Made by a program: the position numbers. Below are positions 15,001-27,000 of a DNA stretch of 35,983 bases, one piece after another (position 1 is the first letter of the stretch; the number at the start of each line of letters is the position of its first letter). Source of the DNA: Acholeplasma sp. (GTDB taxonomy: Bacteria; Bacillota_I; Bacilli_A; Acholeplasmatales; UBA5453); NCBI GenBank assembly GCA_036677365.1, contig JAVBWN010000019.1:1-35983 (forward strand), read 5' to 3'.

Positions 15001-18000
15001 AAACACCAATTTCAATTGGATTTCTAACAAATATGGTATAGGTGGTAACTACATTCAAGTAGTTATTCAAGTATACGATGACTTCGTAATCACCTGGGAC
15101 ATTTAAATTCACTGCATCGGTATCGACACCCAATAAGGATGTAAAATCATCGCCATACCCATTTCGAGCGGTGATGCCTTCTAAGAAGTTTGGAGCAACA
15201 TCGCCAATGGTATAATTGCGGTTCACTGCACCATAAATCGATATGATTTCAGGGTTTTTTGGTCTAGAAACCACACTGCTTCTACTTGTGAATAGAAATT
15301 GTGCTTTGCCTGCATATTGACCCACAGTTACATTAAATAAATCGATGATTTCACCCACTTGAATGGTATCAAATGCGTATGGTGAGGCATTCACGCGCTT
15401 ATCTAGACGAACAAATGTGACTTCACCTGCGCTGTTTTTCAAGTATATTTCAATCGCGTTATTCGGAGTTGTTTTGGAGGTGACTTCGAGTTCTAAATAC
15501 GTGATGACATTGGCTTCATATAAAATGACATCATCAAAATCGAGTGAATATCCAGTCAAGTCAATGCCATTCACCAAGTTATGGGTGGAGAATGTTTGGA
15601 TGATCTTAGGTGAACTGAGTTGAATTAAACCATTGAATATACTTAAGGTACCTTCAATGATGTATTCCGTACCCACAAGTAACCCTGTATTGTTATTCAT
15701 ATACACCGGAATCGCACCTGAAGCATCTTGGATGGTGAAATTACCGTTGGTCATTAAGCTGGTAATGACACCCCTGACTTTTACCACTGATCCTTGGGCT
15801 TTTAATCTAACTTCTGCAATCGGTGTTTCGGTAGAAACCGGGTAGCCTTCCGCTTTTAAAACGACCACGTTAAAGTTTTTGGTAAATGCATTATTTTCGC
15901 TGATGATGGCTGTCAATGTGACAGTCACATCGATATCTTTTCTATTAACAACACCTGTGGTTGAAATCGCGTTATTATTGGATGTCCATTGGATTTGAAC
16001 GCCATCTATTTCGGTTGGTAAGGTTAAATTGGAAACGGTTTGAGTCGGTAAAAGAATTTGATTCAATATCGCTACATAGTCCGGTGTAACTACCGCTTGT
16101 TTAACCACTATGACATCGATGGAAACTTCATAGGCTTTGTTGTCCATGGTTACAGTAGCGGTTAAAGTGACCGTAACATCATTCGCTTGTCTGGTGATTA
16201 ACCCGGTATGGGTGATGACATTCGGTGCTGAGGATTGCCATGTCACTGGATTGCCCAAATAGCTAGACTTCAATAATAAATCCACTTCCGTGGTCTCTGG
16301 TAAATCTAAATGATTTTCAAATGCCTCATAATCAAACACATATGGTGCAATCACTGTCACTGAGAATGTACGACTTTGGGTGATGCCATCCACTGTAAAA
16401 GTCGCGGTGAGGAAAACAATGCGGTTGAAATCGGGTAAATTTACAACGCCTGTACTGGATAAAATGGATTCATTTGAACTCTTCCAAACGATGTTATGAC
16501 CATCGACACTGCTCGGTAAAGTAATCGATTCTGTGACTTCGCTCGGTAATTGAACGGCATTAAACAATAGATTAAAGTCTACATTGGTTTTTAAGATGGT
16601 AATCTCAAATGTCTTACTGAATGTCTGCCCATTCACTATGACGGTTGCTGTCAAATTTATGGCGATGTCTTCGGTTTGTCTGGTAATTTTTACAGTAGAT
16701 TCTTCTATGACTGCAGAAGCATTATCGCTATGCCATACAATCTCTACATCTTGAATCGAAGTTGGTAAAACGAAGTCGCTTTTCACTGTGTCTTTCGTTT
16801 CCCCATTTGAAAACTGAATTGCGATGTTATCGGTGATATTTTGCGTTTGAGGTTGTGTACAACCGCTCAATATCAGGATGAATAATAACACTAAAATCTT
16901 TGAAAACTTCATTGAATAATAACCTGCTTTCGTTTTGACGGTAAAGTCATTATAGCATGCAAAATCTGATAAATATAGTACAAAATAATGCGTGTCTTAA
17001 GTTGAATTTGACTTAATCTATTTTGTAAATGAAAAAACAGGATTTCTATTTAGAATAATCCTGTTTATGTACTAAAATTTTTTCTCAATGAAGAGCTCTT
17101 TTGTACCATCTAAAAAACGTTTGGCGAGGATACCCGTGAGTATGCCTGCTGGAACAGAAAGAAATAACATAATCGGTGCGTAGAATAATGCCGCTTCAGT
17201 GATCACGTATGTGGCAGCAACAATCTGTCCAACCACATGCATGACAGATGAAATCGCTGAAACTGCCATGATACCAAAGAAATCCAGATTCTTTAAAATA
17301 ATCAATGTGATCAATGAGAATACTGCACCGGATAAAGATAGTGTAAATGTAATCCCGTTAAATGTACCTGGAGCGAATAACGCAGTCACAATGAGTCTTA
17401 AAATGACGACGGTAACGGCTTCTTTGGGTCCATATACAAATAAGATGATCAAAGTCACAATATTGGAAAAACCAATCTTAAATGCTGTCCCAGGTACCAA
17501 TTGAACATACGATTCTAAAATATTGATGATGGATGCGACGCCGGTAAAAATGGCGATCATCGCGAGTTTTTTCACGGTCATTACATAATCACATCCAATC
17601 CCAAATCTCTAAATTCAATGGTGACGTAATTCGGTAAACAAATGATGGGTTGTAAATCCGAAAAACCAACACGACTACATATATTATACGGGCTGGTCTC
17701 TTCTTTGACACGCACTTTGTTGTCTTTATACTCAATCCATATGAACCCCAGATTACCTAAAATGAAGTAGTTATTTTGATACTTAACAATACCTTGTCCC
17801 AATTCTAACGCTGTAAAAGCTACTTGATTAACCAGCAATTCATCGCCTGAAATGTCTGGCAATGCATCGACCATATATACGGTTTGATTGTTGGCTTTGG
17901 TGAATTCACCATTTTCTAAATTGATGGCGAACATCGTTGTATTTTTGTATTTTACATACGCCTGTTCACCACTTTTGCGTGTGGCTAAGGAAATGACTAA

Positions 18001-24000: not shown

Positions 24001-27000
24001 GTGGTTTGGTTCGATAGAATGTCGTGACCACTTCGCCTAAGATGAAAATGATTGCCGATAATACGATACGGCTTACGGCATCCCAGCCAAAACGATAGAT
24101 TGCAAACACAACCACTGGGATTAAAGCGATGAGCACGTCCACCATCATGCGTTTCGTGCTGTTTTCCTTACGTACATAAGGTGCTGTTTGTTTAGCGTAG
24201 TTCATTTGCTTCACCTATTTTCTAATAAAGCGCTTCGCTTGTCTCATCGTTTCAGTTAAATGAATCTTCGATGGGCAGGTGAATGAACACAAACCACATT
24301 CGATACATTTATTGACATTGAGTACAGCCAATGCATCTTTATCTCTTTCTTTATAAGCATTCATGATTTGAACTGGTTGTAAGTCGACTGGGCAAGAATA
24401 TACACAAGATGCACAGTGGATACAAGGTTCTGTTTTGATCGGTTCTTCATCTAGTACGATGAGTGAGGTCACAGTCTTCGTCACGATCAAGTCATCGTTT
24501 TGAAGGTTGGTTCCCATCATTGGTCCACCACAAATAACCACTTTATTCTTGTCATTTTCAGTGTAACCACCACACATTTCAATGAGGTCTCTCACTGGGG
24601 TACCAATACGTACTGCGAAGTTTCTTTGTGTTTTAACGCCATTACCAGAGATGCTGACAAAACGTTCTGTGATTGGCATTCTGCGTTTAACTGCACGGTA
24701 GAAACCATATAAAGTCGCAACATTGAATACAGTAACACCATATTCTGCAGGCAATTTACCTACAGGCACTTGGATGCCTGTCGCTGACTTGATGGTGTCA
24801 ATTTCCCAACCTTGTGGGTAGTGATTACCGACACGTTTGATTTCAATGTCAAAATCAGTAAAACTGTGTCTTGCATTCTCAAGTACTTCATAGAGTTCAG
24901 GGTATTTCTTCTTAACAGCCACCACACCACGTTTCGCACCAGTCGCTCTCATCGCGTAGGTTAAACCTTCGATGATGCGGTGTGCTCTTTCTAAGATGAG
25001 TTTGTAGTCGGAAATCAAATGCGGTTCGCATTCAACCCCATTGGCTACCACGACATCGATTGGATGTTTGGTTTCAAGTTTGATGTAGGTTGGGAACCCT
25101 GACCCACCTAAACCCGATAATCCTGAGTCTTTGATGATTTGGATATAGTCTTCTTTGGTTAAAGCAGCAATCTCTTCATCGGTTCTAGAGACACAAGATT
25201 CGTGTAATACATACTTCTTATCGTTTTTAACGATGAGGCAGTCGACAGTTTGACCTGACGAGTGCACTTTCTTTTCAAAGCCTACCACATAACCACTGAC
25301 CGTGGAATGGATTGGTTGATCGAAAAATCCACCATGTCGCGTACCAATAAGTTCGCCTACTTTAACATATTGTCCATCGATGACACAAGATTCACCTGCT
25401 GGGCAGCGTAAATCTGTGGTCGGGAAATATAAGTATTCTGCTTCTAGGTAGTGATTGACGGGTTGGTTCTTTCTTTCTTTTTTCCCATCGGGAATGTGTC
25501 TTGTTTTCTCAATCATTTACTTCACCCCTTCATTATAATGACTGATAAATCGGGAACCGATTCATCAATGAAATGACAGATTCTTTGACTTCATTTAAAA
25601 CGTTTGGATCTTGGTAGCCTCTCAATGCTTGATCCATTAAGATGGCGACTTGTTCGATGTCTGATTCTTTTAAACCACGTGTGGTGACCGCAGGTGTCCC
25701 TAAACGGATACCCGAAGTGACCATTGGTTTTTCAGGGTCAAACGGAATGTTGTTTTTGTTGCAGGTAATGTTCACCGATGACAAGATGTCCGCAGCTTGT
25801 TTTCCAGTCATACCAATCGAAGATTTGACGTCGACGAGCATCAAGTGGTTATCTGTACCACCAGAAACGATGCGATAACCCAAACTTTGGAGTTTGTTCG
25901 CTAAGGTTTGAGCGTTTTTCACCACTTGTTGTTGATAGGTGATGAAGCTTGGGTCTAAGGCTTCATAGAATGCGGTTGCTTTAGCAGCAATCACATGCAT
26001 CAATGGTCCACCTTGTATCCCCGGAAATACTTCTTTGTCGATTTTTTTGGCTAAATCGGGATCATTGGTTAAAATGATGCCGCCCCTTGGACCTCGTAAG
26101 GTCTTGTGGGTCGTGGATGTCACAGCGTGTGCGTATGGCATTGGGTTGGGATGCACACCAGCAGCGATTAGCCCTGCGATGTGTGCCATATCAACCAGGA
26201 GTTTCGCCCCAACCGCATCTGCGATTTCTCTGAATTTTTTGAAATCGATGATTCTTGGGTAAGCACTCGCTCCAGCAATGATGAGCTGTGGTTGTTCTTT
26301 TTTAGCAATCTCTAGGATGGCTTCATAATTCAGTGTTTCAGTGGCTTTGTCTACCCCATAGGTGGTTCCGACATAATCAATACCCGAGAAAGATAGTTTG
26401 TATCCGTGGGTGAGGTGTCCCCCATCCGATAGACCTAAACCTAGGATTTTTTCCCCTGGTTTAATGAGTGCACGGATGGCAGCCATGTTGGCTTGTGACC
26501 CAGAGTGTGGTTGGACATTCGCAAAGTTGGCATGAAACAATTGTTTAACACGTTCAATTGCGAGAGTTTCGACCACATCGACGTGTTCACAGCCTGAATA
26601 ATATCGTTTACCAGGGTATCCTTCCGCATACTTGTTGGTTAGGACAGAACCTTGTAAATACAGAATCGCTTCAGAGACAAAGTTTTCTGAGGCGATGAGT
26701 TCAATGTGTTCTTCTTGTCTTTGTTGTTCAAGACGAATGGCTTCTAATACGGCTGTATCTTTTAGCATAAGTTTCCTCTCATAAGCACGGTTATTATATC
26801 ATAATAGGTTTTTTTTTCTACCCCTATTTTTGCTTGATATATACTTTGAGTGCTTGTGTATCAAAGTAAATTTGTTCGTCTAAAGCGGTTGGCATATTCT
26901 TTCCGACATAATCGGCACGGATGGGTAGTTCGCGGTGTCCACGGTCGATCAATACCGCCAATTCAATTCTCGATGCCCTACCAATATCTAATACAGCATC

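Follow-up and report, generated by a model that had tools for sequence, protein, structure and literature searches.

A four-cysteine membrane protein encoded between rnfA and rnfB in an Acholeplasma rnf operon with a one-cluster RnfB and paired multi-FMN RnfG genes

Gene content of the locus

The window analysed here is a 35,983-nucleotide stretch of the genome of a wall-less bacterium, Acholeplasma sp. (contig JAVBWN010000019.1). Its minus strand carries genes in the order rnfC-rnfD-rnfG1-rnfG2-rnfE-rnfA-small gene-rnfB, followed by apbE and the genes for a NusG domain II protein and a HepS-like protein. The features are as follows.

24215..25516, minus strand: rnfC, 433 aa, NAD/FMN site and two [4Fe-4S] motifs (TIGR01945, 360 bits, over the cut-off)
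23132..24214, minus strand: rnfD, 360 aa, GATP flavinylation motif at 168 (TIGR01946, over the cut-off)
22155..23132, minus strand: rnfG1, 325 aa, N-terminal transmembrane (TM) helix and two FMN-type domains, AAGSS and ISGAS (PF04205)
21188..22153, minus strand: rnfG2, 321 aa, TM helix and two FMN-type domains, VGGAS and VSGAS (PF04205)
20526..21191, minus strand: rnfE, 221 aa (TIGR01948, 211.7, below the cut-off of 213.4)
19948..20529, minus strand: rnfA, 193 aa (TIGR01943, over the cut-off)
19748..19948, minus strand: unnamed 66-aa protein with four cysteines; its start overlaps the rnfA stop and its stop overlaps the rnfB start
19440..19751, minus strand: rnfB, 103 aa, TM helix and a single flexible [4Fe-4S] domain (PF04060)
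19409..19434, minus strand: terminator-like hairpin after rnfB, 11 pairs, -15.4 kcal/mol, with a T run
18044..19276, minus strand: apbE flavin transferase, 410 aa, C-terminal TM anchor (PF02424)
17581..18099, minus strand: NusG domain II membrane protein (PF07009)
17072..17581, minus strand: HepS / Gx-transporter-like membrane protein (PF07456)
30635..31048, minus strand: flavodoxin, 137 aa, net charge -16, outside the operon (PF00258, E 1.1e-15, sole match in the genome)

All six subunits of Rnf (RnfABCDGE) are encoded within one operon. RnfC also matches PF01512, PF13375, PF10531 and Fer4; RnfB, RnfE and RnfG score under the TIGR whole-protein cut-offs. RnfA C28 and C116, as well as RnfE C31 and C114, which are [2Fe-2S] ligands, are invariant among 66 sequences, and all four cysteines of the RnfA/E membrane [2Fe-2S] site are present. 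The predicted flavinylation motifs are GATP in RnfD and SGAS in both distal RnfG domains, with the apparent variants AGSS and GGAS in the proximal ones. The ATP synthase c subunit of the genome shows a Q...ETT..Y pattern, which we take to be a Na+ signature. The Na+-gating residues of Rnf also look conserved, with RnfE R73 and E121 matching the gating pair as judged by motif position relative to A. woodii (PMC11889175). The flavodoxin is a candidate low-potential donor.

The first-pass annotation had apbE and eetAB-like genes following rnf. The gene order is as described, and apbE has no other tblastn match in the genome, but these genes probably form a separate transcription unit, since the hairpin lies after rnfB and RNA-library contigs from three studies end close to it, at 19434, 19445 and 19451. 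The hairpin was not listed by a promoter/terminator pattern scan that performed at chance level. We take the NusG domain II protein to be EetA-like and the HepS-like protein to be EetB-like, an arrangement that, together with apbE, recalls the Listeria-type flavin extracellular electron transfer locus. Genes of these kinds also adjoin full-length Rnf loci and are therefore not specific. Unlike the Listeria-type locus, this genome lacks a UbiA-family quinone prenyltransferase, with no match over the cut-off and 14/14 controls positive.

The one-cluster RnfB and the paired RnfG genes

The 103-aa RnfB, previously described as a membrane helix plus one Fe-S domain, is borne out as a genuine short protein with a true stop and a PF04060 domain. 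Its ligand cysteines C46, C49, C54 and C72 are all present and invariant in alignments, and it aligns solely to residues 11-80 of A. woodii RnfB (9ERI_B), which carries a basic ferredoxin 'hook' (PMC11889175). The C-terminal ferredoxin-like domain is absent from the open reading frame; tblastn found no match to RnfB elsewhere in the genome, and a CxxCxxCxxxC motif scan of the genome revealed no detached polyferredoxin. A frameshift or split of rnfB was rejected, because the stop is conserved, the RNA-library contigs are free of indels and a second half was not found.

A one-cluster RnfB by itself is an already published type. In the account of Kuhns et al. 2020 (PMC7414866), the T. maritima Rnf, which shares the rnfCDGEAB order, has an RnfB of about 10.6 kDa predicted to hold a single [4Fe-4S] cluster, oxidises ferredoxin and pumps Na+; the C-terminal RnfB domain is thus not required for activity. 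The two Thermotogota loci examined differ from the window: rnfB directly follows rnfA, there is only one rnfG, and rseC lies elsewhere, the last as reported for T. maritima (PMC9124969).

RnfG1 is the canonical RnfG-like copy, matching TIGR01947 over residues 8-141 (E 1.3e-14, below the cut-off). RnfG2 measures 321 aa if translation starts at the ATG that directly follows the rnfG1 stop and 329 aa if it starts at the first ATG, at 22177; a single-sequence model of it was unusable (pLDDT 39). The two proteins are 38% identical (117/306), as had been stated, and their distal domains 60%. Two RnfG paralogues are indeed found in 20 of 21 other genomes of family UBA5453, but the claim that the tandem is a trait of this family was refuted: in a second family of the order (f3), 21/22 loci examined have two TM-anchored rnfG-like genes, the second being assigned by where it lies, by its TM anchor and motifs, and by a profile built iteratively from the domains in the window, with Pfam recognising 1/7. 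These diverged copies had been missed because a single query was used. A quick domain tree (141 columns) did not distinguish one from two rnfG duplications in the two families. Likewise, two FMN domains per RnfG holds for both genes in the window but is not fixed, with 1+3, 2+1, 1+2 and three-gene layouts among relatives.

Multi-FMN RnfG by itself is also already published. Meheust et al. 2021 (PMC8238504) and Huang et al. 2024 (PMC11334425) report RNF clusters with a multi-FMN RnfG, for which a second, extracytosolic outlet was proposed, and clusters holding several FMN-binding proteins; the consulted parts of these papers, the supplementary cluster table aside, do not describe two separate TM-anchored rnfG paralogues within the rnf operon whose distal domains are homogenised. 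The three unusual features first noted for this Rnf are all present as genes, but two of them, the stub and the multi-FMN RnfG, are known types.

By analogy with Thermotoga, the operon would encode a working ferredoxin:NAD+ oxidoreductase, probably Na+-translocating. A Vor-type 2-oxoacid oxidoreductase or the HydABC-type hydrogenase would reduce the 2[4Fe-4S] ferredoxin or the flavodoxin of this genome, which would deliver electrons directly to the one flexible cluster that RnfB carries. They would then pass through the RnfA/E [2Fe-2S] cluster, the membrane-proximal FMN of RnfG1 and RnfD to RnfC, a path deduced from published structures and conserved ligands. On the outside of the cell, RnfG2 and the distal FMN domains may form a flavin chain of variable length that acts as a side outlet or electron buffer.

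The 66-aa protein and its distribution

The extra four-cysteine membrane protein first noted between rnfA and rnfB sits in that position in 30/30 best-scoring loci of the order. It consists of one N-terminal TM helix, an N-K-K-T-P-V-P linker, the cysteine motif (C33-x9-C43-x2-C46-x5-C52) and a C-terminal helix; a structure model (pLDDT 83) has four helices, and the basic residues following the TM helix suggest that the protein faces the cytoplasm. The gene is under purifying selection (pN 0.08-0.16 and pS 0.36-0.76 against seven congeners) and lies on the same RNA-library contigs as rnfA and rnfB. All four cysteines are kept in 80/87 family members, whereas 3/87 have the CxxC alone and 2/87 have three cysteines. 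The CxxC is the sole invariant pair; in a wide alignment the last three cysteines are each conserved at 90% or more and the first at less than 90%, and the spacing before the last ranges from 3 to 12. With a median net charge of 0 (n=87), the tail is not basic.

The earlier statement that this protein has no Pfam or NqrM match held, the only Pfam match at E<=1 being the sub-cut-off PF25184 (E 0.18). With the structure model, Foldseek gave no match and a second fold search gave generic helices (best Z 3.4). Comparison with sequences of solved structures reached a best E of 0.51, PHROGs gave no match, and no fusion into longer proteins was found, which is a weak test. Atlas matches were to unnamed Mycoplasmatota clusters (0.91-0.92) and, as a lead only, to PF12669 (0.84). 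The 66-aa protein is a real, undescribed protein; its probable role is that of a metal-cluster helper or an additional subunit.

The stub and the small gene, initially described as order-wide, are present in the order but are not confined to it: in a sample of the class, 152/168 genomes with rnfA/E and an RnfB domain carry the small protein, a count that, like the others for this class, is inflated by kin that are not independent. The 16 remaining genomes include seven with a 33-40-aa version, in which the cysteine spacing varies, and six with a full-length RnfB. Conversely, 152 of the 157 profile-positive genomes carry rnfA/E and PF04060, and three of the other five are weak matches (E 1.6e-4 to 7e-4).

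The gene is not always linked to rnf. In one family (f22) it is found in 15/15 genomes, but the loci examined place it apart from rnf, flanked by pgm and ung in four cases, and in 5/5 rnfA is directly adjacent to rnfB; it is also detached from rnf in loci of two further families (f7 and f17). Extra copies occur in three genomes among copper-type P-ATPase, HMA or CueP genes, and further paralogues lie beside unrelated genes. These copies would suit a general membrane metal-binding peptide that handles copper or iron and, although encoded in the operon, has no action on Rnf, as would a weak likeness to PF12669 and two class genomes (G323 and G412) with a small-protein match and no Rnf/Nqr D/E family match. 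We nevertheless regard this explanation as very unlikely, since only 5/157 positives lack rnfA/E and 117/300 class genomes have neither the small protein nor rnfA/E (related genomes again being counted separately), and since the genome encodes its own FeoB-linked cysteine peptide elsewhere.

PF12669, the FeoB-associated Cys-rich protein, shares with the small protein one TM helix and a short Cys-rich tail. It is matched by 24/97 relatives at E<=0.01 (best 1.1e-5) and weakly by 3/4 scanned short versions of 34-40 aa (17-22 bits, cut-off 27). The 66-aa protein of the window itself is unmatched, however, and there is no feoB nearby; the position downstream of feoB, identified from sequence on another contig (C37), is held by the separate cysteine peptide, and homology between the two was unsupported on comparison.

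The presence of the gene also follows the form of RnfB. In a cross-phylum sample of 80 loci, the small gene is adjacent in 16/23 stub loci, with one further frameshifted copy, and is absent after rnfA in 28/28 full-length-RnfB loci with rnfA in view. Within the class, both the small gene and RseC are missing from six genomes with full-length RnfB that belong to two lineages. This link to the stub favours a permanent seventh subunit, in which a four-cysteine Fe or Fe-S centre beside RnfB would serve as a relay or docking site replacing the lost ferredoxin-like domains, the input module thus consisting of a pair of small membrane proteins. The conserved cysteines, the position fixed in most families and the start and stop codons that overlap those of both neighbours would also suit a 1:1 subunit. 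However, the T. maritima complex is reported to work with a stub (PMC7414866), and the stub operons examined in two Thermotogota and one Brevinematales lack the small gene. A fixed redox centre is poorly fitted by the CxxC-only, three-cysteine and variable-spacing 33-40-aa members, the tail does not resemble the A. woodii 'hook', and the unlinked genes in several families and the paralogues in copper-resistance clusters also count against a subunit. We therefore consider a permanent subunit possible but doubtful, and less likely than an assembly helper. The broader proposal is also a tentative one, rather improbable as a whole: that the Rnf of Acholeplasmatales, Izemoplasmatales, Erysipelotrichales and uncultured kin has seven subunits, with a tiny Fe-S membrane protein of independent origin replacing the ferredoxin arm of RnfB and a second tethered multi-FMN protein on the outside that connects external acceptors to Rnf and perhaps also to the Nqr, without NqrA, of these quinone-free cells. 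If it were true, RseC, NqrM and the small family would be convergent versions of one overlooked component of all Rnf/Nqr pumps.

A possible role in cluster assembly

NqrM has a single helix and four cysteines. Like the small protein, NqrM (PF04400) is a small membrane protein encoded with pump genes and apbE; it is described as an Fe-S maturation protein needed for a membrane Fe-S site (PMC12174285, PMC6209661). The small protein differs in being tied to rnf and not to the genome's nqrBCDEF cluster (contig C27), where neither the cluster nor the region after nqrE gave a small-protein match. PF04400 was not matched by the 66-aa protein or 97 relatives, and a profile search of five genomes, run without a positive control, found none. 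Four genomes with only an nqr-type D/E pair also have no small gene (two loci inspected), so the small protein does not serve the membrane [2Fe-2S] site as a general helper.

RseC/MucC (PF04246) offers a second parallel as a membrane-anchored Rnf/Rsx accessory whose location relative to rnf is reported to be movable (PMC9124969). RseC has a CX5CX2CX5C motif with the last three cysteines conserved (PMC11729352), and the small protein shares the CX2CX5C triad (C43-x2-C46-x5-C52), cytoplasmic in RseC and predicted to be so here, and the less conserved first cysteine. According to the same source, RseC binds an O2-labile [4Fe-4S] cluster and interacts with RsxB and RsxD; deletion of rseC in C. ljungdahlii lowers rnf transcription, and the published accounts leave its role unsettled between regulator and partner (PMC11729352, PMC9124969). 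RseC is, however, about 130-160 aa long with two C-terminal membrane helices, whereas the small protein has one N-terminal helix. There is no PF04246 match and the hhalign probability is 0.5%; homology is unsupported, the likeness being limited to the cysteine motif and the topology being different. RseC exceeds the cut-off in 1/301 class genomes, by its TM part only, and is present in all three Rnf-bearing bacterial controls. Five stub-RnfB genomes, from about three lineages, show a reciprocal pattern: three outside the class have RseC and lack the small protein, and two inside the class have the small protein and lack RseC.

By analogy with what is proposed for RseC, the small protein could be a redox or oxygen sensor or protector whose CxxC or labile cluster gates or shields the exposed single RnfB cluster or signals to rnf expression. 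The invariance of the CxxC pair alone, the oxygen lability of the RseC cluster, the C. ljungdahlii phenotype and the presence of aerotolerant members in the order (PMC11122141) point in this direction, but the gene lies within the very operon to be controlled, and the protein has no DNA-binding or other output domain, nor did a weak test reveal a longer fused form. We judge such a role unlikely.

Our preferred reading, which we hold with about even confidence, is an RseC/NqrM-like iron or Fe-S assembly helper for Rnf. We infer that the 66-aa protein is an Rnf-dedicated, membrane-tethered metal or Fe-S binder, which would deliver iron to, assemble or repair the RnfA/E or RnfB cluster and so take, in this class, the job thought to be that of RseC and NqrM elsewhere. 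It would contact the complex at least transiently and would be unnecessary as an electron wire. This role is favoured by the co-occurrence with rnfA/E and PF04060, the retention of the gene even when unlinked, the RseC-like triad and reciprocal RseC pattern, the copper-cluster copies, the weak PF12669 likeness, the NqrM precedent at the same membrane site, and a one-cluster RnfB that accepts ferredoxin and pumps Na+. Against it stand the association with the stub, the codon overlaps, the absence of RseC homology beyond the motif and the unsettled role of RseC itself. Such a helper is not always needed, since the six full-length-RnfB class genomes have neither the small gene nor RseC.

The role of RseC is disputed, and a small family that occurs where RseC was not found makes the assembly of the buried RnfA/E [2Fe-2S] and the exposed RnfB cluster directly testable. 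It also supplies a missing gene for the expression of a minimal Rnf. Cultured relatives encode the 66-aa protein, with 83% identity in Paracholeplasma manati and 75% in P. morum.

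The rnf operon and its one-cluster RnfB

On the minus strand of the window the operon runs rnfC, rnfD, two rnfG-like genes, rnfE, rnfA, a small ORF and rnfB, after which come apbE, a NusG-II gene and a HepS-like gene. Every junction from rnfC to rnfB abuts or overlaps, the small ORF starting within the rnfA stop codon (TAATG) and stopping within the rnfB start codon (ATGA). The features discussed most below are:

24215-25516, minus strand: rnfC
19748-19948, minus strand: small ORF of 66 codons
19440-19751, minus strand: rnfB, 103 codons

A hairpin with a T run directly follows rnfB, and RNA-library contigs from three studies terminate at 19434-19451; one such contig covers rnfG2-rnfB and another rnfA-rnfB, contigs being no proof of a single transcript or of strand. 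The Rnf core looks intact: all four Cys at the membrane [2Fe-2S] site are conserved without exception in 66 relatives, and there are residues that, by motif position, would be equivalent to those gating Na+ in A. woodii Rnf. The rnf-apbE-HepS linkage is already in print (PMC7074142), and eetAB-like genes adjoin ordinary Rnf loci as well.

The one-cluster RnfB stub reported in the first-pass annotation is real: the protein consists of a TM helix and a single PF04060 domain with four invariant Cys, its alignment to RnfB chains of known structure is confined to their first 80 residues, and no detached remainder of RnfB was found in the genome. The stub is already known. T. maritima RnfB is a 10.56-kDa protein with one predicted cluster, and the complex that contains it was reported to pump Na+ and to oxidise ferredoxin of clostridial origin (Kuhns et al. 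2020, PMC7414866). Stubs also occur in Thermotogota and one Brevinematales genome, and they are the rule in this class, where PF04060 frames are mostly 86-133 aa among the best 150 matches listed. Candidate electron donors, labelled from sequence motifs, are a 58-aa 2[4Fe-4S] ferredoxin, a HydABC-like hydrogenase and a four-gene 2-oxoacid:ferredoxin oxidoreductase adjoining a similarly labelled leucine-dehydrogenase-like gene; the sole flavodoxin match of the genome (window 30635-31048, on the strand of rnfC and 5 kb upstream of it) is a further candidate. At one locus of family f9 (L101, 7625-8188) RnfB has 187 aa and two PF04060 domains, with a copy of the small gene on each side, and similar double-PF04060 frames of 183-194 aa are present in genomes G233, G244 and G183.

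Identity and distribution of the small membrane protein

The small ORF is a real gene, with pN of 0.08-0.16 and pS of 0.36-0.76 against seven congeners, and pN of 0.01-0.09 in the cytoplasmic part. In the predicted model a linker joins a TM helix to three short helices. The protein gave no match below E 0.1 in Pfam or NCBIfam and none in PHROG, it is labelled hypothetical wherever a source names it, and literature searches, with most subscription papers outside their reach, found no publication describing it. The Peloplasma paper gives its Rnf as accessions ending in 36-38, 40-41 and 43, and the numbers it skips are exactly those at which rnfG2 and the small gene would be expected (PMC11122141). 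The small protein is a real Rnf accessory, class-wide and undescribed, whose role can be tested.

A single-sequence search for the small gene matched 97 of the 151 genomes of the order, with one spurious match, and the order rnfE-rnfA-small-rnfB in 30/30 top loci of the order confirms its reported place between rnfA and rnfB. With a profile it was found in 157/300 class genomes, in a phylum sample that contained no other class; the stub and the small gene are present across the order, as first described, but are not limited to it. Because the genomes are related to one another, the counts do not represent independent observations. Among the 168 class genomes having rnfA/E and PF04060, 152 carry the small gene. 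The 16 exceptions were examined one by one (G242 from match tables): seven have a 33-40-aa TM-plus-Cys ORF at the equivalent site, one of them annotated as 56 aa from an upstream start; six have a full-length RnfB (267-277 aa) abutting rnfA; and the other three comprise an rnfA/E-only cluster, a locus with unread bases in the gap and a genome 55% complete. Such 33-40-aa ORFs lie between rnfA and rnfB at L127, L128, L147, L148, L149, L269 and L270 (families f10 and f11). Five positives without rnfA/E are three weak matches and two drafts, and the gene is absent from four genomes having only an nqr-type pair. In an 80-locus cross-phylum RnfB sample it is adjacent in 16 of 23 stub loci, plus one frameshifted copy, and no small-type ORF follows rnfA in any of 28 full-length-RnfB loci with rnfA in view (22 from this sample and the six class genomes).

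Possible roles of the small protein

This tie to the stub is what would be expected if the small protein were a permanent subunit replacing the lost parts of RnfB. We nevertheless regard that role as rather unlikely, because the tail of the protein is not basic, the Thermotoga stub enzyme works, and the Cys set can shrink to CxxC: the 87 distinct rnfA-adjacent copies have four Cys in 80 cases, five in two, the last three in two and only CxxC in three.

Three observations suit an accessory better than a fixed wire. To begin with, whole families keep the gene away from rnf: f22 has it in 15/15 genomes, unlinked in those of its loci that were examined, and it is also detached at loci of f7 and f17. 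The second observation is a parallel with RseC in motif and in conservation; RseC has a CX5CX2CX5C motif with the last three Cys conserved and an O2-labile [4Fe-4S] cluster, and it contacts RsxB and RsxD (PMC11729352). RseC itself exceeds the cut-off in only 1/301 class genomes, with the match on the TM part, and of five stub genomes tested for both proteins, three outside the class have RseC only and two inside it the small protein only. Third, three genomes carry additional copies next to genes for heavy-metal ATPases, HMA proteins or CueP, and PF12669 weakly matches 24/97 relatives of the small protein. We therefore favour, at roughly even confidence, an RseC/NqrM-like helper of Rnf. By sequence the small protein belongs to neither of these two families. 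Counting against a helper, both the small gene and RseC are missing from the six class genomes whose RnfB is full-length. A role as a sensor appears improbable, and that of a mere bystander in the operon more improbable still.

The paralogues at L093 (7708-7851), L098 (6769-6960) and L100 (6574-6726) lie inside gene clusters that also encode heavy-metal P-type ATPases, HMA proteins, CueP and two-component systems. At L105 (1910-3001), L106, L107, L108 and L169 (6456-7328), all of them loci with an unlinked small gene, rnfB is directly followed by a related-looking lipoprotein of 290-363 aa; that of L105 has no Pfam match and that of L169 carries SGVS and SGVT motifs.

Tandem RnfG and other redox genes

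The two RnfG paralogues are 38% identical overall, each with one TM helix and two FMN-type domains, as annotated at first pass. Two or more paralogues occur in 20/21 other UBA5453 genomes, but the pair is not a trait of that family alone: in f3, a second family of the order, two TM-anchored genes lie between rnfD and rnfE in L035, L048 and 19/19 further loci, chosen among small-gene-positive genomes (L031 has one only), and an Acholeplasmataceae record (L157) also has such a pair. The f3 pairs had been missed because PF04205 matches only 1/7 of the second genes. The proximal domains of G2 form a separate clade per family (99, 98) in a quick tree of poor resolution, so rnfG may possibly have been duplicated independently twice, once per family. 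Where distal domains have been lost, the proximal ones are still there. Within a genome, G1 and G2 share a median 59% identity in their distal domains (range 27-98%, 17 genomes), as against a median of 32% for G1 distal domains between genomes, which suggests repeated copying. Homogenised distal FMN domains, up to 98% identical, are seen in the window (21188-21620 and 22155-22590) and at L035, L043, L047 and L050.

A single RnfG of 1353-1988 aa occurs elsewhere in the order, the giant f2 forms having many repeated FMN-type domains (L033, 663-6629, 1988 aa; L036, 8885-13156, 1423 aa; L042, 1353 aa). That a multi-flavinylated RnfG might provide a second outlet is already published (PMC8238504; PMC11334425), in agreement with the earlier remark that multi-FMN RnfG as such is known, and the supplementary cluster table of PMC8238504 may include these tandem loci. 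RnfD is elongated (477-589 aa) at L127, L128 and L135, and rnfG of L147 is cut down to a 43-aa helix, which suggests relocation of the FMN domain onto RnfD.

In the genome no UbiA-family gene exceeded the cut-off and cytochrome bd gave no match. An nqrBCDEF cluster without nqrA (contig C27, 6522-10387) gave no match to NqrM and is not accompanied by a separate apbE. On contig C13 (33334-34150) a flavodoxin-like ORF is followed by a small membrane-anchored FMN-binding protein (129 aa, AGAT motif), a predicted further ApbE substrate. In another genome (G066) a second rnf-like cluster lacking rnfC and the small gene (L140, 4243-11855) encodes an MFS transporter, a ferric-reductase-like membrane protein, cydA, cydB, rnfD, rnfG, rnfE, rnfA and a stub rnfB, a make-up that suggests a ferredoxin:quinone oxidoreductase delivering electrons to cytochrome bd; L141 (G251) and L142 (G283) share its layout and gene lengths, the Pfam assignment coming from L140 only.

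Outside the operon, the window encodes an 856-aa lipoprotein-like protein (14342-16912) that combines four atrophied Ig domains with an OB fold and an endonuclease I domain. It is read as a surface nuclease, which agrees with reports of DNA foraging by wall-less relatives. A tocopherol-cyclase-family gene lies at 12889-13938 on the plus strand.
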